Shown here piece after piece: positions 1 to 30,886 of a stretch of DNA of 37,489 nt. Position 1 is the stretch's first letter. Every line of letters starts with the position of its first letter. The notes under the pieces were generated by a model. The model did no database searches. It saw only the letters and a program-made list of their open reading frames with translations, and was not told the DNA's origin. The translations under genes and the position numbers were made by a program. Source of the stretch: Candidatus Aenigmatarchaeota archaeon (GTDB taxonomy: Archaea > Aenigmatarchaeota > Aenigmatarchaeia > CG10238-14 > SCSR01); contig JBDRGB010000006.1 of the NCBI GenBank assembly GCA_043818155.1, forward strand, positions 1 through 37,489, written 5' to 3'.

Positions 1-2400
1 GGCTGGTCCGCAATGACCCAGCGCGTGGCCGGTTCGTTGCGCGCCGCATCCCAGTCCCTGATGGCGAATTCGCCTGCACGGACCGTCTTCGGGATGCTGA
101 GAACGGCGCTGGAATCCATTTCGCCGAGCGCCATAGCCGGCAGGCTCGCTTCGCTTTCAAAAACGATCGTGCAGGCCGCGGCCCCGACCGCCTTGGCGGG
201 CCGCACGGCGTCGATTGCGAGGGCTCTGTCGCAGCAGTTTGGGTTGCTGAGCGTTACCATCCAGTCTTTCGAGTTCACCTACAATAGGATTGCCAGCGCG
301 TACATTACAACTGCCGGCGCGGTTGCAAGAGGCTTCGAGGCGGTGAGGGCGATACAGCAGTTCGTTGCCGCCAACATCGTCTCGTCCAGAATCTCGGCCG
401 TGACAAAGGCCGTGGCGCAGTCGCTCGCTTTCGGCCAGTACGTGGAGAAAGTCTTCGGGATTCTGCGCTGGGCGGCGCAGTCTCTTTCGGCCGAAACCGT
501 GGCCGGAAGGCTTGCGCTGCTCGCGCGCGCAGTGCCGCAGAACATCGATGCCGCTGTAATCGCATCAAGAGCCGCGTCAATATTCAGGACGCTGTCGCAG
601 TCCTTCGCGGCCGCAGACCTGTCGAAGACGCTGTCGTCCTTCGGCCGGGCCTTGGCGCAAGCGATCGGTGAGAACATCGCGATAGCCAGAGCGCAATCCC
701 TGTACAAGACCTTGTCGCAGTCGCTCGCCGCGAACGCCATCGCATCAAGGATACCGATAGTCATGAAAACGCTTACTCAGGCAGCCTCCGTCGAAGCGCT
801 GTCGACAAGGCTGGCGCATGCGTCAAGGACCATAGCGCAAAGCGCCAACGTCGGCCTGGCTATGGGCAGGATACGGGACGTTTTCAGGTCGATGACGCAA
901 TCGGTGTCCGCGACAATGCAGGCAAACACGCTCGATATCTACAGCAGGATAGCGAACGCGGTCACGCCGATCACGGCCAGCGTCGCGAAGCTGCGCCAGG
1001 CCGGCAGGCTGGCAACGCAATCCCTGCCCGTGTCAGGCAATGTGGCTCGCGTTTTTGACGGCATCAGGGCGGCGTTGCAGTCGCTCGGCTGGTCGGCGAT
1101 GCCGCAGCGCGTGGCGGTTTCGCTGCGCGCGACGTCCCAGTCTCTGGCATCTAACTCGGCCGCAGGCACCCTCTTCGGAATATTGAGAACGGCGCTCCAA
1201 ACGCTTTCGCCCGACGCGATAGCCGGCAGGCTCGCTTCGCTTTCCAAAGTCCTAGCGCAGGCGGTTGCGACGAACGCCTTGGCGGGCCGCGTGGCGTCGA
1301 TTACCAGGACGCTGTCTCAGTCGTTCGGTCTATTCGACATAACCAGGCAGTCGTTCGAGCTGACCTACAACAAACTAGTCACCGCGTACATCACGGCCGC
1401 CGACGCGGTCGCGCGAGGCTTCGACGCAGCCAGGGCGATACCGCAGTCGGTCGCTACGAATGTCATCCCGTCCAGAATATCGTACGCGATAAAGAATATC
1501 GCGGCGCAGCTCCAGGCGTCGCTGATAGCCGGCAGGTTCTCGGCCGTGACCAAGGCTGTGTCGCAGTCGCTCGATTTCGGACAGCGCATAGACAAGGCCT
1601 TCGGAATCCTGCGATGGGCGACGCAGTCCCTTTCGGCAGATGCGGTGGCCGCGAGGCTGGCGACAATAGCGCGCGCGGTGCCGCAGGCGCTCGGCCCCGC
1701 CGCCATCGCGGCTAGGGTTGCATCGATGTTCAGGACGTTGTCGCAGAGCGTCTCGTACTCTTCGCAGATATACAACCTTGTGTTCAAGTCGTACGAGACT
1801 TTCGCCACCGCGGCGATGCAGGTAACCGGGAACGCGGGTAGGCTCGTTTCCGCGCTCAGGACGACGATGCAGTCGCTGGCCGCGGACATCGCCGCGCGCA
1901 GGATTTTCGGTGGCATCGCCACGGCAGGCGATGCGCTCGGCATAAGTTCTGCAGCGGCGCGCGTGGGTGAGGCTGTCAGGAATGTGCCGCAGTCGCTGTA
2001 CTCGGCGTCAGCCGCGGCCAGCGCGTTCGTGAGGTCCAGGGTGGCGATGCTCGGGCTGGCGCTCGGCGACGTAGCTGGCAGGCTGGCGTCGGTTTCGAGA
2101 ATCACGGCGCAGCTGCTCTCGGTGGAAAACGCGGCCAAGCTTCCGTCGTTCGCGTACGACAGGATCACGGCGCTCGCGGTGTCGATATCGGACGCGCTGC
2201 AAAAGCTGAGGATGGCGGGCAGGGCAGTGACTGGCGCGCTCACGCTGACGGACGCGGCAGGAAGGATGGTTGAGTTCGCCAGGGCAACCGGGCACCAGCT
2301 TAGCGCGGCTTCGGTCGTTGCGAGAGCTGCGTCGTTCCAGAGGAACCTGTTCACCGCGCTGTCGGTGCTGTTCGGATGGTTCTTCAGGTTCCCGGCATGG
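1..2400 (+). repeat. Coding tandem repeat of about 39 units of 20 aa, with a higher-order 1086-nt duplication
   Basis: Units such as KAVAQSLAFGQYVEKVFGIL, RWAAQSLSAETVAGRLALLA and RAVPQNIDAAVIASRAASIF have R/K at position 1, Q at 5 and R/K at 15. Bases 1-603 recur at 1087-1749 with one extra 60-nt unit. Confidence 0.9.
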
Positions 2401-4401
2401 GCTTACTCGTCGCAGCCGACGTGCGAGGCGGCCGGATACTACTGGTGCTCGGGCGCGTGCACCACGATGTCGTGCGACACGCGTCACAACGTCACGTATG
2501 CAAACGTGACCGCCGACCAGCAGATGCAGGTCAACGCGACCGGCACGAACGTGTCGATAGCGCTTTTGTCGAACACCACGCTCAACAACGTCGCTTTCGA
2601 CACGTGGTCCTACGAGGACACGCCCGCAGCGACCACGCTCGCCGCTGACATGGACACGCAGAGCCTGAAATATTTCAATGTCACAGCAAACAGCACGCTC
2701 AACGCGACCGTGCTGCAGTGGCTGATGATGAAGTTCGAGTACACCGATTCCGAGGTTTCCACGGCCGGTCTTGCGGAGAGCACGCTGTCGATGTACACGT
2801 ACAACGAGACGCTCGGTTTGTGGGTGCAACTCAGTAACAGCAGCGCAGGCGTGTTCGCGACTGGCATCGATACCGCGGCGAAGTACGCGTGGGTCAACAA
2901 GACGAACATGAGTCTGTATGCGCTGGGCGGGCTGTACGTGAACGGCCATGTATGTTCGGTGTCGGCCGAGTGCTACTCGGGCGCCTGCTGCTCGAGCACT
3001 TGCCAGAACAGCTGCGCTGCAACGCCGTCGCCGACGCCATCGCCAGGAGGTGGAGGAGGATCGATTATAACCCCGCCGGCCGAGTCGGACGTGAAGTACA
3101 AAAAGATAGCGGTGCTCAGGGAAGTAATGCCAGGCCAAGCCGTTGTCGTGGTCGTGGAGGTGAAGAACGAGGGCGCGATCGCGCAGAAGGGCATGGAACT
3201 GACCGTGTCGGGCATGCCCGCGAGCTGGATATCCAAGAGCGTCAGCAGCGTCGACGTGCAGTCGTCTGACTCGAAGGGCTTCAACATCATCGTCAGCCCG
3301 CCAACGGACGCAATCCCCGGCGACTACAAGGTCACGCTGAACCTGAAGAACGCTGTCATGGAGTCGGAGAGCTTCTTCATAGTGAGGGTTAGGAACATAC
3401 CTGCGGACTACGACAAGCCGATCGTGTTGAGGCAGGTGAACATAGACAAGGAAAGTGGCCGTACGGACGTGGGCATAGTCGTGAGCAACCCCTATAGGGA
3501 TTACGAGCGCGTCGATGTTATAGAGAGCATACCGAGAGAGCTTGCGAACTCCATCGAGTATGTGGACTTTGACACGAAGCCGAGCACGATTGTCAGGAAC
3601 GATCTGATAGTGATGTGGAGCATCACAGGCATGGCCGCGGGCGAAACGCGCACGTTCTCGTACTCAGTGTCGAATGTGCTCGACGAGTTCGCGCCCTACA
3701 TATACTGGCCGCTGAGGCAGCTGAACGTGATAGCGGCGACCGCGCCCTCCACCATGAAGCTTACGGGATTCGCGGTCCCGTACTTCACGCCGGGGCTGAG
3801 CTCCGACATCAGGTTCAAGGTCAGGAACACGGACGCAGTGCCGCACGACTTCACGTTCGGCATGGAGCTGCCGGCGGGCTGGAAGATGAACCCGGAGGGC
3901 ATAAAGGAAACGTTGGCGGCGGGCGAGGAGAAGGAGTTCAGGGTATCTGTAACGCCGGCGGCTGACGCGAAGGCCGGCAGGCACATGGTAAGGGCGGCGT
4001 TCGGATGGGACGACACGCACGTGATAAAGGAGTACGTCGCGGAAACTGCTACGGCCGGACTGTCGCTTGTGCTGATCGCGGCTGTCGGCGCAGTCTTCGC
4101 AATCGGCGCATGGTACGGCTACCGCATTAGGGCACAGGTCAGGCCGCAGGTCCGCGACAGGCTCGCCATGAACGAGAAGCTCGGCCGCATAAGGGACGCC
4201 ATACGCGCGTCGCGGCCGGTGCCCGCTGGACGCGGCGCGCTCGAGTCCGAACTGAGGTCCGTGCGGGAGTTGAGAACAGGCATCGAACTGTCCGCACGGC
4301 ATGACAAGGGAAGGCCGATTCCGGGCAGGTTGGCTGCGGTACATCAAGTCAGGAACATTCTACGGCGGAGGAGCAGGCCATGGCGCGACTATTGGAGCTG
4401 A
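1..4401 (+). CDS. Giant membrane-anchored surface protein, probably 5'-truncated by the window edge: 20-aa repeat region, Cys-rich motifs, sequon-rich domain, Ig-like (NEW3/CARDB-like) domains, C-terminal TM helix
   Basis: The frame is open from base 1 (GWSAM..., matching the internal copy at 1087), so the ATG at 13 is probably not the true start. Contains Cys motifs CEAAGYYWCSGAC and CSVSAECYSGACCSSTC, many N-x-S/T sequons, a TPSPTPSPGGGGG linker, and TM GLSLVLIAAVGAVFAIGAWYGY followed by a basic tail. Confidence 0.85.
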   Translation, partial: GWSAMTQRVAGSLRAASQSLMANSPARTVFGMLRTALESISPSAIAGRLASLSKTIVQAAAPTALAGRTASIARALSQQFGLLSVTIQSFEFTYNRIASAYITTAGAVARGFEAVRAIQQFVAANIVSSRISAVTKAVAQSLAFGQYVEKVFGILRWAAQSLSAETVAGRLALLARAVPQNIDAAVIASRAASIFRTLSQSFAAADLSKTLSSFGRALAQAIGENIAIARAQSLYKTLSQSLAANAIASRIPIVMKTLTQAASVEALSTRLAHASRTIAQSANVGLAMGRIRDVFRSMTQSVSATMQANTLDIYSRIANAVTPITASVAKLRQAGRLATQSLPVSGNVARVFDGIRAALQSLGWSAMPQRVAVSLRATSQSLASNSAAGTLFGILRTALQTLSPDAIAGRLASLSKVLAQAVATNALAGRVASITRTLSQSFGLFDITRQSFELTYNKLVTAYITAADAVARGFDAARAIPQSVATNVIPSRISYAIKNIAAQLQASLIAGRFSAVTKAVSQSLDFGQRIDKAFGILRWATQSLSADAVAARLATIARAVPQALGPAAIAARVASMFRTLSQSVSYSSQIYNLVFKSYETFATAAMQVTGNAGRLVSALRTTMQSLAADIAARRIFGGIATAGDALGISSAAARVGEAVRNVPQSLYSASAAASAFVRSRVAMLGLALGDVAGRLASVSRITAQLLSVENAAKLPSFAYDRITALAVSISDALQKLRMAGRAVTGALTLTDAAGRMVEFARATGHQLSAASVVARAASFQRNLFTALSVLFGWFFRFPAWAYSSQPTCEAAGYYWCSGACTTMSCDTRHNVTYANVTADQQMQVNATGTNVSIALLSNTTLNNVAFDTWSYEDTPAATTLAADMDTQSLKYFNVTANSTLNATVLQWLMMKFEYTDSEVSTAGLAESTLSMYTYNETLGLWVQLSNSSAGVFATGIDTAAKYAWVNKTNMSLYALGGLYVNGHVCSVSAECYSGACCSSTCQNSCAATPSPTPSPGGGGGSIITPPAESDVKYKKIAVLREVMPGQAVVVVVEVKNEGAIAQKGMELTVSGMPASWISKSVSSVDVQSSDSKGFNIIVSPPTDAIPGDYKVTLNLKNAVMESESFFIVRVRNIPADYDKPIVLRQVNIDKESGRTDVGIVVSNPYRDYERVDVIESIPRELANSIEYVDFDTKPSTIVRNDLIVMWSITGMAAGETRTFSYSVSNVLDEFAPYIYWPLRQLNVIAATAPSTMKLTGFAVPYFTPGLSSDIRFKVRNTDAVPHDFTFGMELPAGWKMNPEGIKETLAAGEEKEFRVSVTPAADAKAGRHMVRAAFGWDDTHVIKEYVAETATAGLSLVLIAAVGAVFAIGAWYGYRIRAQVRPQVRDRLAMNEKLGRIRDAIRASRPVPAGRGALESELRSVRELRTGIELSARHDKGRPIPGRLAAVHQVRNILRRRSRPWRDYWS

Positions 4402-24149: not shown

Positions 24150-24404
24150 CTACAGGTTGTACAGGAATATCCACACTACAGCCCAGACGAGCAGGAAAGT
24201 CACGAGGCTGTTCGACAGCAGCTGCGACCTCTTCTGCCCGCGGCCGAGCCTGAACATGACCGCGGCCGAAGCTGCGTACGCCGCCAGCGGAAGCAGCACC
24301 GCATACACCAGCGGCCCCGCCTCGAAATAGTTCGACAGCACGCCCGACGCCACTCCGAGCGCTGAGTATGCCGCCACGACCTTCTGTTCCAGTTTTATCT
24401 CCAT
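24150..24404 (-). CDS. Small three-TM protein, EMC6-like
   Basis: Three hydrophobic helices and C-terminal TFLLVWAVVWIFLYNL resembling the EMC6/Rab5ip-family end motif. Confidence 0.6.
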   Translation of the reverse strand: MEIKLEQKVVAAYSALGVASGVLSNYFEAGPLVYAVLLPLAAYAASAAVMFRLGRGQKRSQLLSNSLVTFLLVWAVVWIFLYNL

Positions 24405-24428
24405 CCAGCTTCAACCCAGAAACGCGCC

Positions 24429-25231
24429 TTACATCTTCTTCTCTTTTCCAAAGATAAAATCCTTTATCTTCCGCTGCCAGTTCTTCTCCTGCAGCTGCTG
24501 CGTCGTTATCCAGCTCTTTCGCACGTACGCTGGCAGCCTGCGCTGCGTCTTGATCAGCATGTCGACAAAATCCACGGTCCGCTGGTCGTGCGGATAGCCT
24601 ACGCCGAAGTCCACTCCCGCCTCCTTCTTTATCTCCTCGATTGCGCGGTCGCGCTCGACCTTCGCGATTATCGACGCCGCACTCACTATGGGGTAGCGCT
24701 TGTCCGCCTCGTTCTCCGCTATTATGCGGAACTTCTTCCCTTCGACCCGCACGTCCTTGCCGCGCTTCCCCTCGTTCAAAAATTCCAGCACTATCTTCTT
24801 GAAGCGCTCGGGCCGCGTGGTCAGCGCGTCCAGGTACACCTCCTCCCCGCCTATCATGCCGATTATCTCGGCCATGGTGCGCGCCTCGAGCAGGTTGAGG
24901 TTGCTGTTCTCGGACTTTTGCGCGTCTATCCTGCACGGCGGTATGGATATGGGCAGTATGCTCGATACGCGGCTCTCGGTCCGCAGCACGCGCTTGATGC
25001 TGTCGTACAGCTCCGCGCGCTTCGCGGGCGTCAGCTCCTTCGAGTCGCGCACGCCCATCCTCCTAAGCTTGGCGACTACGCGTTTCTCCGCCGTTATGCC
25101 GCATATGACCATCGGGCCGATGAGTGCGCCTCTTCTGGTAGGATGGCCTCTCAGCCGAGCCTATTTCCAGCCTCATCAATCCCGGTAATCAGCGTACTAC
25201 TATCCGTTTTTCTGTCGGAACTCTTTGCCAT
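24429..25231 (-). CDS. rnhB: Ribonuclease HII, intron-interrupted: join(25231..25165, 25132..24429), 256 aa if started at ATG 25231
   Basis: Removing 32 nt gives LITGIDEAGRGALIGPMVICG. Downstream motifs GVRDSKEL, ADKRYPIVSAASIIAKVERD and FGVGYPHD are intact. Confidence 0.9.
25133..25164 (-). other. Putative 32-nt archaeal (BHB/BHL-type) intron in rnhB
   Basis: RNA reads CUGG-AA^A-UAGG-CUC-GGCU-GAGA-GGCC-AU-CCUA-CCAG-AA^G: a 4-bp CUGG/CCAG helix, a 3-nt bulge, a UAGG/CCUA stem and a GNRA-capped hairpin. Cuts after the second bulge nucleotide give GAG GCT GGA AGA GGC. Confidence 0.85.
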
Positions 25232-26199
25232 AACTTTCCGTTCCTTTTTACCAAATTGAGTTTTTCTAATTCATTAAGTCTTCTGTAAACGGATTTCCAA
25301 GATTTGCCAGTTGATTTTGCCACCTCGGCAGTCGTTTTGGCTTTGCCTAAAATTGTCAATAAGTTGCTTTTTACTTTGGAAATCACAATCAGGTTCGAGT
25401 TTGCCCTAACCCAAAAATCCCTGCTTCCAGCTCTGAAATTGGTTACCATGCTCTCTTTTTTGAGAGCACCCAAAACCTTGCTTATGCGCGCCTTGGATCT
25501 GCCGAATTTCTCCGAAAGTTCTCTTGTTGGAATCGGGACCGAGAGGAGCAGGTATAGCTCGCTCTTTAAGAAATTTTTATCGTAATGTCGCTGTTTGTAG
25601 CAATTCATCATGCTATGGAATTTGGAGTTTTTGTCCCTGTGCAAGGACGTCATTCCAATTTTAAGGATTTTTTCCAAATTCCTCCTGTTAGAAATCTCAT
25701 ATTCTCTATCTTCTTTTCTGAACCTAGACTCTATTCCAAAATTTTCTAACATTTTTTCCAATATCGCGTTCCTTGATTTTTGGGAGATGCGCACGACTCT
25801 GCTTTTACATCTCCGGACAAACCTAACGCTCCCTTCCCCTGCGAAAAAGCCTTGCAGTACAAACTCGTATGATTTTTTATTCGAAATAGTTTTTCGGACT
25901 ATCTCTTTCCAAATTTTAACGAGTTTGACATTTGCAATCCTGTATATGAAATAAGGCTTTCTGGCCCTCTTGTCGGTGTAGAATTTATGTACGGCTTTTA
26001 TCGGCAGCCTTATCTCTCGGCCATCATCCGAGTAGACATAAATTCTAGCGTTCGGAATTGAACCAAAAATACTAGTCATGGTCTTATCAAAAAGTATGAC
26101 AAGCTCCTTTAAATTGTTCGTAAAAGTTATTTCACTACTCGTTGTGCTGTCGCCTTCAGCAAGCCATAACCCGACGCATCTAGAAACGTCTTTATGCAT
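25189..26199 (-). mobile_element. Free-standing LAGLIDADG homing-endonuclease-like gene with two C-terminal winged-HTH domains
   Basis: Motifs CVGLWLAEGD and VLQGFFAGEGS, HTH segments PTRELSEKFGRSKARISKVL and TTAEVAKSTGKSWKSVYRRL. Markedly more AT-rich than both flanks, with its own TTTTTATA box at about 26229-26222. Confidence 0.85.
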
Positions 26200-26266
26200 G
26201 CGTGCATATTGTAATTCCTAATATAAAAATATACCCTATGAAATATCCTCTACCAAAAAGAGGAAA

Positions 26267-26704
26267 TCATATCCAGTGCCTGTACCCCATCTTGAACACT
26301 ACGACATCCTCTGCGAGGTCCCATACGATGTGCAACACCATCGCAGCGAAGAACAGCCCGACTAGGAAGTACTCCGATATCGCCACGAGCAGCGACCCGC
26401 CGAGCGCGACGAAAAACACCATGAAGTTGTGCATCTTGTACTTCCGGGGCTTGCCGTACTCCTCGACCGTGCGCAGTTTGAGATAGCCGCGTATGCCGAC
26501 GTCCATCCAAAGCGGCACGTGGTCGAAGTCCAGCACCGCAGTGCCCAGGGCAACGGCCGCCGCCTTGCCCATGTCCAGCGTCAGGCTGGGCTGCACCGCG
26601 AAGTACAGCGCCGCGGCCAGCACCACGTGCACCGCAGCGTGCACCAGCGCGTAGTTGTACCCTATTATCCTCAGTTTCGGCATGGCCAAGCCAGACACCT
26701 TCAC
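26267..26704 (-). CDS. Membrane-bound metal-dependent hydrolase (YdjM/LexA-binding-like)
   Basis: TM helices carrying H...H, DFDH, MHN and HIVWD putative metal ligands. Confidence 0.7.
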   Translation of the reverse strand: MKVSGLAMPKLRIIGYNYALVHAAVHVVLAAALYFAVQPSLTLDMGKAAAVALGTAVLDFDHVPLWMDVGIRGYLKLRTVEEYGKPRKYKMHNFMVFFVALGGSLLVAISEYFLVGLFFAAMVLHIVWDLAEDVVVFKMGYRHWI

Positions 26705-26857
26705 ACAGTTTCCGTTTTATTCCTATATCGTTTGCAGGATTTTAATCCTTCTGCGTCCCGCGGCCGTTTCGACGGCTCCGAACAAAAGCATTTTCGAAAA
26801 GCATAAAACTTTACTATAAATAGTTTTGCGATAAATTTATGCTAAGGCGATTTTTAA

Positions 26858-27487: not shown

Positions 27488-27727
27488 CAGCGGAAGTGAG
27501 GTCTCGCAAGCGGCAATACCCGCCGCGCGCAAATATACATCAACCGCAGCACGCAGCGAACGCGTGTCCTCTGATAGAGGCGTGGCGCGGAAGCTGCAAA
27601 TGGCCCGCGCCCGCGATTAGCGGCCGGGCCGGCAATGCGGTTTTCCCGAACACCCACCTGTTTTGGAAATACCATAGAATTCGGTTAACGATAATAACAT
27701 CCGGACCGAAGAAGACTTTTGGAGATT

Positions 27728-30700
27728 ATGGAACGCGAAGAGCTGGTAGAAAAATTCTCGGAGTTCCTGAACGAGAGATGCATGGGCGACCTCGTCACCG
27801 CGCTCACCGAGAACAGAAAGTCCATCTCCGTAGACTTCTCGCTGCTCGACAAGTTCGACGTCGAGCTCGCGGACTACCTGATCGAGCAGCCTGAGGACGC
27901 GCTGTCCGCGGCCGAGGAGGCGATCAAGAGCATAGACACCGGCATGGTCGAGTCCAAGCTGCGCGTGCGCTTCTACAACCTGCCAGCGAGCAAGAACATC
28001 CGCATACGCAGCATACGCGCCGAGCACCTGGGCAAGATGCTGGTCGTCGACGGCGTTGTGAAGAGCGCGAGCGAGGTCCGTCCGGAGATTTCGGAGGCGG
28101 TTTTCGCATGCCCGGAGTGCGGCATGCGCATGTCCGTGATGCAGGCCGAGCGCAACATCAAGGCGCCGGACCGCTGCGAGTGCGGGTGCAAGCGCGGCTT
28201 CAGCCTGGTGGACCAGAAGATGTTCGACGTGCGCTGGGTCACGGTAGAGGAGCCGTTCGAGATAACCTCGGGCGAGCAGCCGAGCGAGCTGACCATACTC
28301 ATGAAGGAGGACCTGACGACCCCGCTGATGCAGAACCGCACAGAACCGGGCAACCGTATACTGATAACGGGCGTGCTCAAGCACGTGCCGCGGGTTTCAA
28401 GGGACGCGTCGTCGCGCATGATGGACATCTACCTCGACGCGAACCACGTCGACTCGATCGAGGTAGGGTGGGAGGAGCTGAACATCAGCCCGGACGACGA
28501 GCAGAAGATCATCGAGCTGTCGAAGGACCCGCTGCTGTACGACAAGCTCGTGGCGTCGCTCGCTCCGACCATCTACGGCCTGAACGACATCAAGGAGTCC
28601 ATCATCCTGCAGATGTTCGCGGGCGAGCAGCACGTGCTCCGCGACAAGACGCGCATACGCGGCAACCTCCATTTGTTGTTGGTCGGCGATCCGGCGTGCC
28701 TCGTCGCGGACGAGCGCATCGTGCTTGCGGACGGCACCATCATGAAGATGGCCGAGGCCGGAACGCGGCACCTGCAGAAGATAGACCTACACGTGCACAC
28801 GGGCAGCGGCCGCAACTACGGCCGGGCCGACAGGTTCCATGTGTACCGGAAGCAGCCGGTCATGGAGATCGTCACGGAAACGGGAAAGAGTATAAAGGGC
28901 TCGTACAACCAGCCGGTGCTCGTGCTCGATAACACGAGTAACGTCTGGAAGAGGCTGGACGAAATCAGGATCGGCGACAGGGTGCGGACGCTGTCGAAAA
29001 TCGAGTGCAAAATCAAGTCGCCGGTGGAGACTGGATGGAGCGACAAGGATTATTATCACAAGAAGCCAGAGTGGAAGATTAAAGTCCCCGCGCACGTCGA
29101 TGAGAAGCTGGCCGCGATATTCGGCTACGTCGTCGCGGACGGATGGGTGCAGAAGAACAGGGTCGGCTTCGTTATCAGCAAGGACGAGTCCGACATCCTC
29201 CCGGAACTGGAGTGTGCCTTCGCGGACTGCTTCGGCGCGCCAGTGTCCACGTACGTGCACAGGCGGGCCAGCAGGCGCATCGCGTACTACCAAGTGAACA
29301 GGACGCACGCGGCCGAGCTGCTTCAGTTCCTGAAGGAGAAGCGCGTGCCCGGCCTGATTTTCAAGTCCGGCAACCGTGTTGTCGCGTCGTTCCTGCGCTG
29401 GCTGTACGAAGGTGATGGCACGGCGTTCGCGAACGGCCGCGGCCGCACGTCTGTAAGCCTGCGCTCGGCCAGCATCGAGCTGCTGCGGGACGTGCAGATG
29501 CTTCTCCTGAGGTTCGGCATACATTCGCGAATCCTGTGGGACGGCAGGGGAAGCGCGTCCAAGATAGATGGCCGTGTGATAAAAGGCTATCCCAGCGGGA
29601 CGCTGATGATACGCAGGTCCGGGGACATACTACGGTTCTTCAAGAACGTCGGATTCGCGAGCGCGAAGAAGAAGGATAGGCTCGCAAAGGTCGTCGAGTA
29701 CGCCAAGGCGCACGTCCGACGCGTGCATAAGGAAAGGGCTGAGAAAATCGTGCGCATAAGCCGTCATCCGGCCGAGGACGTTTTCGACATAGAGGTGCCC
29801 GTGCACCACAGGTTCGTGGCGAACGGCATAGTCGTGCACAACACGGCAAAGTCGCAGATCATGAAGCTCGCGTCCACGATGATACCGCGCGGCAAGTATG
29901 CGTCCGGAACGGCAGTCTCGGGCGCAGGCCTTACCGCGACGGTCGTGCGCGAGGAAAAGTTCGTCGGCGGCTGGGTGCTCGAGGCGGGCGCGCTCGTGCT
30001 CGCGAACCGCTCGATTTGCGCGATCGACGAGTTCAGCCACGTGGCGCCGCATGACATGATCAAGCTGCAGGAGGCGATGTCGCTCGAGACCATCTCCATC
30101 GCGAAGGCTTCCATCGTCGCGACGCTCCCGGCGCAGACCGCCATCCTCGCGGGCGCCAACCCCAAGTTCGGACGATTCGACCCTTATATCCCGATCAAGG
30201 AGCAGCTCGATATAAACGAGGTCATGCTCAGCAGGTTCGACCTGCGGTTCGCGCTCAAGGACGTGCCCAACCCGGAAACGGACAAGAAGATAGCCGACCA
30301 CGTCCTGAAGATGCGGCACTTCGAGGAGGACGCGGCATTGCCGGCGATAGACCCCGCGTTCCTGCGCAAGTACATCGCCTACGCGCGCGCGAACGTGCAC
30401 CCGAAGCTCACGGTGGAGGCGGGCGAGAAGCTGAAGGAGTTCTACCTGGAGATGCGCGCCATGAGCGGCGAGGACTCGGCCGTCTCCATAACCGTGCGCC
30501 AGTACGACTCGCTAATACGCATGTCCGAGGCGTCGGCGAAGGTCCGGCTCAGCGAAACGGTGGACATCGAGGACGCTCAGCGCGCCATAAACCTCATGAG
30601 CCTCTCGCTGCGCCAGTTCGGGTTCGAGCCCAGCACGGGTAAGATAGACATCGACCGCGTCGAAGGGCAGCGTATGACGTCCGCGCAGCGCGGCAAGACC

Positions 30701-30886
30701 AAGATAATGATGGACGTGATAGCCGCGCTCGAGGCTGAGCTGGGCAAGGAGATGCCCAGGGACGAGCTCGTCCGGCGCGCGGCCGCCGAGGGCATAGACG
30801 ACGCCGAGGACATCTTGCGCAAGCTGCTGCAGATAGGCGACCTTTACGAGCCGAGGCAGAACGTGATCAGCCGCGTGCACGGGTAG
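27728..30886 (+). CDS. mcm: Replicative helicase MCM with one intein (about 670 aa after splicing)
   Basis: Zn finger CPECG...CECGC, Walker A GDPA|TAKS split by an intein, Walker B AIDEF, AGANP, arginine finger SRFDL, GGAG ribosome-binding site before ATG 27728. Confidence 0.97.
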   Translation: MEREELVEKFSEFLNERCMGDLVTALTENRKSISVDFSLLDKFDVELADYLIEQPEDALSAAEEAIKSIDTGMVESKLRVRFYNLPASKNIRIRSIRAEHLGKMLVVDGVVKSASEVRPEISEAVFACPECGMRMSVMQAERNIKAPDRCECGCKRGFSLVDQKMFDVRWVTVEEPFEITSGEQPSELTILMKEDLTTPLMQNRTEPGNRILITGVLKHVPRVSRDASSRMMDIYLDANHVDSIEVGWEELNISPDDEQKIIELSKDPLLYDKLVASLAPTIYGLNDIKESIILQMFAGEQHVLRDKTRIRGNLHLLLVGDPACLVADERIVLADGTIMKMAEAGTRHLQKIDLHVHTGSGRNYGRADRFHVYRKQPVMEIVTETGKSIKGSYNQPVLVLDNTSNVWKRLDEIRIGDRVRTLSKIECKIKSPVETGWSDKDYYHKKPEWKIKVPAHVDEKLAAIFGYVVADGWVQKNRVGFVISKDESDILPELECAFADCFGAPVSTYVHRRASRRIAYYQVNRTHAAELLQFLKEKRVPGLIFKSGNRVVASFLRWLYEGDGTAFANGRGRTSVSLRSASIELLRDVQMLLLRFGIHSRILWDGRGSASKIDGRVIKGYPSGTLMIRRSGDILRFFKNVGFASAKKKDRLAKVVEYAKAHVRRVHKERAEKIVRISRHPAEDVFDIEVPVHHRFVANGIVVHNTAKSQIMKLASTMIPRGKYASGTAVSGAGLTATVVREEKFVGGWVLEAGALVLANRSICAIDEFSHVAPHDMIKLQEAMSLETISIAKASIVATLPAQTAILAGANPKFGRFDPYIPIKEQLDINEVMLSRFDLRFALKDVPNPETDKKIADHVLKMRHFEEDAALPAIDPAFLRKYIAYARANVHPKLTVEAGEKLKEFYLEMRAMSGEDSAVSITVRQYDSLIRMSEASAKVRLSETVDIEDAQRAINLMSLSLRQFGFEPSTGKIDIDRVEGQRMTSAQRGKTKIMMDVIAALEAELGKEMPRDELVRRAAAEGIDDAEDILRKLLQIGDLYEPRQNVISRVHG
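28697..29842 (+). mobile_element. 382-aa intein with LAGLIDADG homing endonuclease in the MCM Walker A motif
   Basis: Begins CLVADERIVLADG and ends VFDIEV...FVANGIVVHN followed by Thr. Endonuclease motifs IFGYVVADG and FLRWLYEGDG. Confidence 0.95.

Follow-up and report, generated by a model that had tools for sequence, protein, structure and literature searches.

The window analysed here, 37,489 nucleotides (nt) of contig JBDRGB010000006.1 from a Candidatus Aenigmatarchaeota archaeon, contains a free-standing gene for a LAGLIDADG endonuclease (25189..26199, minus strand, 336 amino acids (aa)) directly upstream of rnhB, the gene of RNase HII, and rnhB is itself split by a 32-nt micro-intron (25133..25164, minus strand) resembling the bulge-helix-bulge (BHB) type. 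We consider this pair to be, probably, an archaeal analogue of collaborative homing, in which the intron provides the immunity of the carrier. Cleavage within rnhB, splicing in vivo and homing are what we infer; the gene order, the overlap of the two genes, the conserved catalytic residues, the stages of decay, the one-way co-occurrence and the covariation of the insert are observed directly in the sequences.

The N-terminus of RNase HII (...ITGIDEAG) is encoded directly after the endonuclease open reading frame (ORF), in another frame, and meets a stop; the rest of the protein resumes at 25132, and taking out the 32 nt regains the universal DEAGRG motif. The 5' exon occupies 25165..25192 (minus strand), with CTG at 25190-25192 as first codon, and the 3' exon (24429..25132, minus strand) encodes the remainder of RNase HII, whose Pfam RNase_HII match (2.7e-29) begins only at profile position 15. 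The original prediction, made from the letters alone, had described an AT-rich, double-motif LAGLIDADG gene with winged helices whose stop lies 24 nt before the intron, and this is borne out by Pfam, by the coordinates (stop codon TGA at 25189-25191, start of the insert at 25164) and by a GC content of 37-45%, compared with ~60% in the flanks. Both the endonuclease ORF and rnhB are single-copy in the source genome (G000; 0.53 Mb, 85% complete).

A wider scan, which used the endonuclease motifs alone, returned 58 loci, 25 from species genomes and 33 from metagenome contigs, several of which duplicate each other or the genomes G004, G078 and G081. The lineages named for them are Iainarchaeum, Micrarchaeota, Nanoarchaeota, Woesearchaeota, Aenigmatarchaeota, Nanohaloarchaea/Nanohalobium and Asbonarchaeaceae, together with several Thaumarchaeota/Nitrososphaeria and one metagenome-assembled genome labelled Methanosarcinales. 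The rnhB gene follows the endonuclease gene directly in 51 loci by tblastn and in two more (L153 and L129) by eye, and it lies within ~80-100 nt downstream in every locus having downstream sequence, except for one decayed fragment (L176); four contigs (L161, L170, L173 and L178) end before the junction. All 53 visible rnhB junctions beside an endonuclease (50 resolved by script; L129, L131 and L164 by eye) are interrupted, as is that of the window. Dozens of unrelated genomes repeat both this gene order and this split site, which is more than chance. Among the 46 distinct endonuclease-linked introns, which include that of the window and those of three orthologues in its order, the insertion point within the code for Asp-Glu-Ala-Gly-Arg-Gly is at 14 nt in 38 cases, at 13 nt in three, at 6 nt in three and at 16 nt in two; these four positions fall within 10 nt, and the intron sequences are unrelated. 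The property common to all carriers is a broken 10-nt core of the DEAGRG-coding stretch, and not any particular intron; such disruption would be needed if a LAGLIDADG site had its centre there.

Alleles without the endonuclease present a different picture. In the window's order, rnhB is found in 112 of 118 genomes and its junction could be read in 110, as G059 and G105, whose matches lie at contig ends, were excluded. Seventy-two of these junctions are uninterrupted, 19 are interrupted at position 6, by inserts of 14-24 nt directly after Asp-Glu, and 19 within the Arg codon (five at position 13 and 14 at position 14). Full-length endonuclease orthologues (41-43% identity) occur in only four of the 118 genomes (G000, G004, G078 and G081), always directly upstream of an interrupted rnhB, and the 106 endonuclease-less alleles comprise 72 uninterrupted and 34 interrupted ones. 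For a second, unrelated order, around a thaumarchaeal carrier, the best-scoring 30 of 144 rnhB matches were read: 26 are uninterrupted and have no endonuclease, and among the four interrupted ones two have it, one intact and one decayed, so that 26 of the 28 endonuclease-less alleles in these best 30 are uninterrupted. Taking both samples together, none of 98 uninterrupted alleles carries the endonuclease, and 36 interrupted alleles lack it. The co-occurrence is therefore strictly one-way: the endonuclease never stands beside an uninterrupted rnhB, and the intron may stand alone. The existence of intron-alone cases without endonuclease-alone cases is the asymmetry predicted by a cycle of immunity and decay, and this comparison of rnhB loci among relatives, which had been suggested as a check, strongly supports the core idea of the original prediction. 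A further kind of rnhB was seen in genus g28 of the window's order (G028, G033, G036, G106, G107 and G108), where every match has one in-frame TGA and the motif reads DENGRG; this TGA may have been recoded, or may mark a further interruption.

In the cycle that we propose, a free-standing LAGLIDADG gene with its own promoter would have become established just ahead of rnhB, with the ribosome-binding site of rnhB lying in the final endonuclease codons and the endonuclease stop overlapping the first rnhB codon. The presumed target is the uninterrupted DEAGRG-coding DNA, which lies ~20-45 bp past the endonuclease gene; an insert of 14-52 nt breaks this stretch in every carrier, so that carrier DNA would no longer be cut, and host EndA and RtcB are expected to remove the insert from the mRNA, RNase HII still being made. 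In naive alleles the enzyme would make its cut, and repair on the template of a carrier would copy the endonuclease gene and the intron together; the endonuclease gene would later decay and be lost, the intron remaining as immunity. The population pattern is that of a selfish gene, with patchy presence, one homologous site, decay, and both empty and footprint alleles. The endonuclease gene has a GC content below that of its host in the four genomes out of four that were measured, and frameshifted or truncated copies are seen, for example, in L137, L142-L145, L171, L172, L174 and L176-L179, down to a 40-aa remnant in L146. Within genus g6, and between the same flanks, naive alleles (G080, G076 and G077) are found together with alleles having endonuclease and intron (G078 and G081), with an allele that retains the final 23 nt of the endonuclease segment as a footprint, plus the intron (G006), and with an intron-only allele (G079).

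A number of observations weigh against this cycle. Related carriers are not independent of each other and several loci are duplicates, and no rnhB follows the decayed L176. Also, G001, a sister of G000 in the window's genus, shares the intron (29 of 32 bases identical) and has a 70-nt spacer instead of the 1074-nt endonuclease segment, with no detectable endonuclease remnant; the spacer was itself considered as such a remnant and rejected, its alignment score being reached by 163 of 300 shuffles. In this pair either the endonuclease entered an intron-bearing allele, which is impossible by simple homing, or it was lost cleanly. One clade of the endonuclease tree (FastTree, midpoint root) contains a mixture of intron positions, which strict co-conversion of enzyme gene and intron would not predict, and no co-conversion tract can be discerned among the g6 species, which are 54-81% identical. 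Finally, the outer helix closing the 3' bulge has at most 1 bp in 76 of the 78 distinct introns described below, and such a relaxed motif therefore needs a splicing enzyme of broad specificity. Given this mixing of intron positions within endonuclease clades, the earlier proposal that the two parts spread together is borne out in part only.

Some of these points would also be expected if the endonuclease were mobile but cut elsewhere, for instance where rnhB starts or where the endonuclease gene itself inserted, the micro-intron being a linked passenger or a feature of the lineages through which the enzyme passes. The intron lies ~25-45 nt from the endonuclease gene and would be carried along by any gene conversion, introns are common without the enzyme (the 34 of 106 alleles in the window's order), and G000 and G001 have the intron in common and not the enzyme gene. 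However, a single origin predicts one intron type, and four positions with unrelated sequences are linked to the enzyme; likewise, an enzyme indifferent to the intron predicts uninterrupted carriers, as 98 of the 134 enzyme-less alleles are uninterrupted, and none is seen among 53. We thus regard this explanation as improbable, and favour immunity because no single intron type is shared and no carrier stands beside the commoner uninterrupted allele.

The junction between the two genes is arranged in a conserved manner. The stop of the endonuclease gene shares bases, at an offset of one, with a codon of the rnhB frame (NTGA, NTAA or NTAG) in 44 of 49 loci, and this codon is ATG, GTG or TTG in 18 of the 44 overlaps; in the other 26 it is a non-standard start (ATA, CTA, TTA, GTA or CTG), which hints at termination-reinitiation or at unusual start codons. 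The rnhB Asp codon follows 11, 17, 20 or 26 nt past the overlap; in L152 the endonuclease frame continues beyond this codon (offset -22). A Shine-Dalgarno-like GGTGA/GAGGT lies within the last endonuclease codons in 34 of 49 loci. In the window the overlap is CTGA, formed by the rnhB CTG and the endonuclease stop, and no Shine-Dalgarno match is present; G001 has ATG at the place aligned to this CTG. The ATG at 25229-25231, inside the endonuclease gene, which had been taken as the likely rnhB start, is in the rnhB frame and open, and remains as an alternative to the CTG. This arrangement also bears on a scheme in which the endonuclease segment would be bounded by two TGATT copies, the second being a target duplication, and excision between them would restore a coupled rnhB start. 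Both copies exist, but the second corresponds to the conserved stop/start overlap of the two genes, and the nearest endonuclease-less relative, G001, has the 70-nt spacer and an ATG of its own. The codons of the rnhB 5' exon had been contrasted with the GC-ending codons of the 3' exon, an argument that finds no support, since the same codons are present in the endonuclease-less G001 and their third bases pair with the intron.

Upstream, the membrane-protein gene (26267..26704, minus strand, as are rnhB and the endonuclease ORF) forms the left border of the insertion, and the homology of G001 to the window halts at its stop codon (26267-26269). The left end of the inserted segment (26200..26266, minus strand) contains a TATA-like run at 26220-26229, ~25 nt ahead of the endonuclease ATG, where the original prediction had placed a TATA box, and this run is probably the gene's own promoter. 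Comparable runs lie 25-30 nt before the ATG in G000, G004, G078, L122, L147, L149 and L156, and a crude motif count finds one in 20 of 48 loci. An inverted repeat with 6-nt arms and a 4-nt spacer (26193..26208), overlapping the endonuclease start codon, is present as described earlier, but its suggested role as an operator is unsupported, no such repeat having been seen ahead of the endonuclease gene in the three orthologous regions read.

In respect to the protein, the endonuclease ORF matches Pfam LAGLIDADG_3 at 7.9e-9 and has motif 1 as GLWLAEG (26152-26172) and motif 2 as GFFAGEG (25831-25851), both closing with an acidic residue and then Gly, as members of the LAGLIDADG family do. The two C-terminal winged-helix domains are located at ~25405-25572 and ~25222-25377; Pfam assigns a TrmB/HTH_24 winged helix to aa 286-320 and, more weakly, a second helix-turn-helix to aa 218-258. 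In an AlphaFold2 model (pLDDT 83) the core is predicted to adopt the two-domain alpha-beta-beta-alpha-beta-beta-alpha LAGLIDADG fold, packed through the motif helices. The best Foldseek matches of this model in the PDB are E-DreI, I-DmoI and I-Tsp061I, with bI3 maturase and WhiA (rank 11) also found, and the C-terminal tail matches the winged helices of SelB. With I-DmoI and I-Tsp061I, which are monomeric and encoded inside archaeal rRNA introns, the protein has in common the two-domain fold (Foldseek TM to target ~0.55-0.62) and one acidic residue per motif; it differs from them in sequence (~12-14% identity), in having its gene outside the intron, in two extra C-terminal winged helices and in a presumed target that is a protein-coding gene. 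Among the near-intact copies aligned, the catalytic glutamates are kept without exception, E15 in 39 of 39 and E122 in 42 of 42. The invariant glutamates and the I-DmoI-like modelled fold make the endonuclease look active.

The presence of winged helices raises the possibility of a domesticated DNA- or RNA-binding factor, either a WhiA-like regulator of rnhB or a maturase-like splicing helper, with no active nuclease. Its two winged-helix domains, the annotation of relatives as 'predicted transcriptional regulator', the fold matches to WhiA and bI3 maturase and the translational coupling of the gene to rnhB would all agree with such a role. The likeness to WhiA, a bacterial regulator, extends to the succession of LAGLIDADG domains and a helix-turn-helix region. 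WhiA, though, is not known to have the catalytic acids, whereas in the present family, which is archaeal, patchy and decaying, both are invariant in intact copies, and on this ground a WhiA-like scaffold devoid of them, the case that would have spoken against the original prediction, was rejected. Furthermore, 34 of the 38 intron-bearing genomes of the window's order do not encode the protein, which is thus unneeded for splicing, and its patchy presence (4 of 118), its low GC and the many frameshifted copies point to a selfish gene and do not suit a host factor. Taken together, a domesticated factor appears quite unlikely.

The family itself has passed largely unnamed. A large protein collection contains 118 clusters of endonuclease relatives, whose public names, where given, are 'hypothetical protein', 'predicted transcriptional regulator' or similar, and neither the curated NCBIfam models nor the solved PDB structures gave a sequence match to the LAGLIDADG core, only weak helix-turn-helix matches being returned. 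More distant LAGLIDADG relatives (25-28% identity) occur in related genomes, and no rnhB was found in the four such loci checked (L033-L036). The one whose ORFs were read (L034, contig C13 of G022, 1384-2421, minus strand; 27% identity) is a free-standing gene between TFB, to which it is convergent, and a PduO-type adenosyltransferase-like gene, not adjoining rnhB.

Turning to the insert, the exon bases CTGG (25167-25170) pair in the window with the intron bases CCAG (25135-25138); each strand of this central helix is followed by two A's, after which the cuts fall, at 25165/25164 and 25133/25132, and an inner helix joins TAGG (25160-25163) to CCTA (25139-25142). The motif was found by hand and then by rule: four exon bases ending two bases before the 5' cut pair with four intron bases ending two before the 3' cut, and the inner helix starts one base past the 5' cut, leaving a 3-nt bulge at that splice site. 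The rule was applied to 78 distinct introns, obtained from 88 resolved interrupted rnhB genes in independent assemblies. The 4-bp central helix is complete in 75 of the 78 and the inner helix has at least 3 bp in 75; both are present in 72, as compared with 28 of 7800 letter-shuffled introns (0.36%) under the same scoring. The helix occurs in 26 exon/intron combinations that vary with the wobble positions of the Ala and Gly codons, which is covariation. The inserts are 14-52 nt long, 64 of the 78 not being multiples of three, and 55 of the 78 bring a stop into the 5'-exon frame (45% in shuffles), so that unspliced mRNA cannot give full-length RNase HII; excision restores the rnhB motif in all cases, and the remainder of the gene is intact. 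Given the missing outer helix, the strict hBHBh' form is not attained, and on sequence the intron is classed as relaxed BHB-like; the minimum-free-energy fold of the region did not show the BHB motif (z = -0.49). Some introns have features of their own: the loop word UAAGUC recurs in position-14 introns of several genera, and position-6 introns go down to 14 and 15 nt (L048 in G103 and L010 in G007), with an inner helix of 0-2 bp.

The genome encodes the enzymes that removal of the insert would call for, namely an RtcB ligase (427 bits) and two separate genes with an EndA domain (G000:C35:25-303 and G000:C19:4108-4383; tRNA_int_endo, 91 bits each), whose products may form a hetero-oligomeric splicing enzyme. 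According to one report, only hetero-oligomeric and epsilon-type splicing endonucleases cut non-canonical introns (PMC5829648). That the insert is no intron at all, rnhB being a pseudogene, a gene read through by frameshifting or an assembly artefact, could draw on the lack of an outer helix but is highly implausible, considering that the same site is interrupted in those 88 loci of independent assemblies, that the rest of rnhB is intact and its motif always restored by excision, that lengths vary between 14 and 52 nt, mostly not in multiples of three, with strong covariation, and that a related strain in another sample has the same arrangement. The latter is seen in a 798-nt contig that spans rnhB, the intron and the 3' half of the endonuclease gene; among DNA contigs of four sequencing runs over 24300-26800, no joints skipping the endonuclease gene or the intron were found.

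As to the surroundings of the locus, the gene order MCM - TBP - membrane gene - (endonuclease) - rnhB - EMC6-like - AspRS is common to G000 and G004 and includes the window gene at 24150-24404 (minus strand). The MCM gene (27719-30886, plus strand, 1055 aa) carries an intein-like insert in which LAGLIDADG-type motifs occur; this insert is a second selfish endonuclease element, at a distance of 1.5 kb from the rnhB-linked one. A relationship between the two was considered and rejected, as they are unrelated in sequence.

Several known systems resemble this one in part. Collaborative homing is described in phages, as is reported for T4 mobE with the nrdB intron and I-TevIII (PMC6083498, PMC2790892). 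As in those phages, the endonuclease gene lies outside the intron, beside the interrupted gene and tightly linked to it, the intron has no ORF, and it would sit at the presumed cut site, so that carriers would be immune, which is suggested here by the four positions within 10 nt. Unlike in phages, the host is a cellular archaeal genome, the intron is of a 14-52-nt BHB type that host enzymes would remove and is not self-splicing, the enzyme is a LAGLIDADG protein with winged helices, encoded in translational coupling with the host gene, any of four intron positions serves the same role, and cleavage is putative. A comparable case is reportedly that of the free-standing F-CphI beside the psbA group I intron of cyanophage S-PM2. 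Among introns, the nearest likeness is the cbf5 pre-mRNA intron of Crenarchaeota, which is of the BHB type, presumably cut by the tRNA-splicing endonuclease, and gained and lost among relatives (PMC2738675). The rnhB insert is likewise a BHB-type intron in an archaeal protein-coding gene, but in a different gene, in DPANN and Thaumarchaeota, smaller (down to 14 nt), at several positions within 10 nt and linked to an endonuclease. A search of the open full-text literature, subscription journals and supplements being outside it, found no published description of an rnhB BHB intron with a linked endonuclease, and in the same literature cbf5 was the only case found of an intron in an archaeal protein-coding gene. 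By title and abstract, the works on collaborative homing that this search listed appear to concern phages, eukaryotic viruses or organelles, or to be reviews.

These results have a practical side: annotation may treat rnhB as truncated or broken in many DPANN and thaumarchaeal genomes, where an intron of 14-52 nt divides it. They also bring out an endonuclease family that is widespread and so far unannotated; its natural target can be predicted, and it might serve as a new LAGLIDADG scaffold. If the proposed cycle is true, this would be the first free-standing homing endonuclease cooperating with an intron outside phages, and the first such cooperation involving enzyme-spliced archaeal introns. 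A broader and distinctly more tentative possibility, which the sequences allow us to raise with considerable reserve, is that endonuclease attack repeatedly drove the birth and fixation of tiny host-spliced introns at any base of the DEAGRG-coding stretch where an insert would destroy the enzyme's site, so that BHB introns of archaeal protein genes could originate and spread as immunity; the free-standing arrangement would in that case represent an archaeal precursor state of intron-encoded endonucleases. The proposed cycle, if correct, would give a concrete selective reason for the presence of introns in archaeal protein-coding genes.

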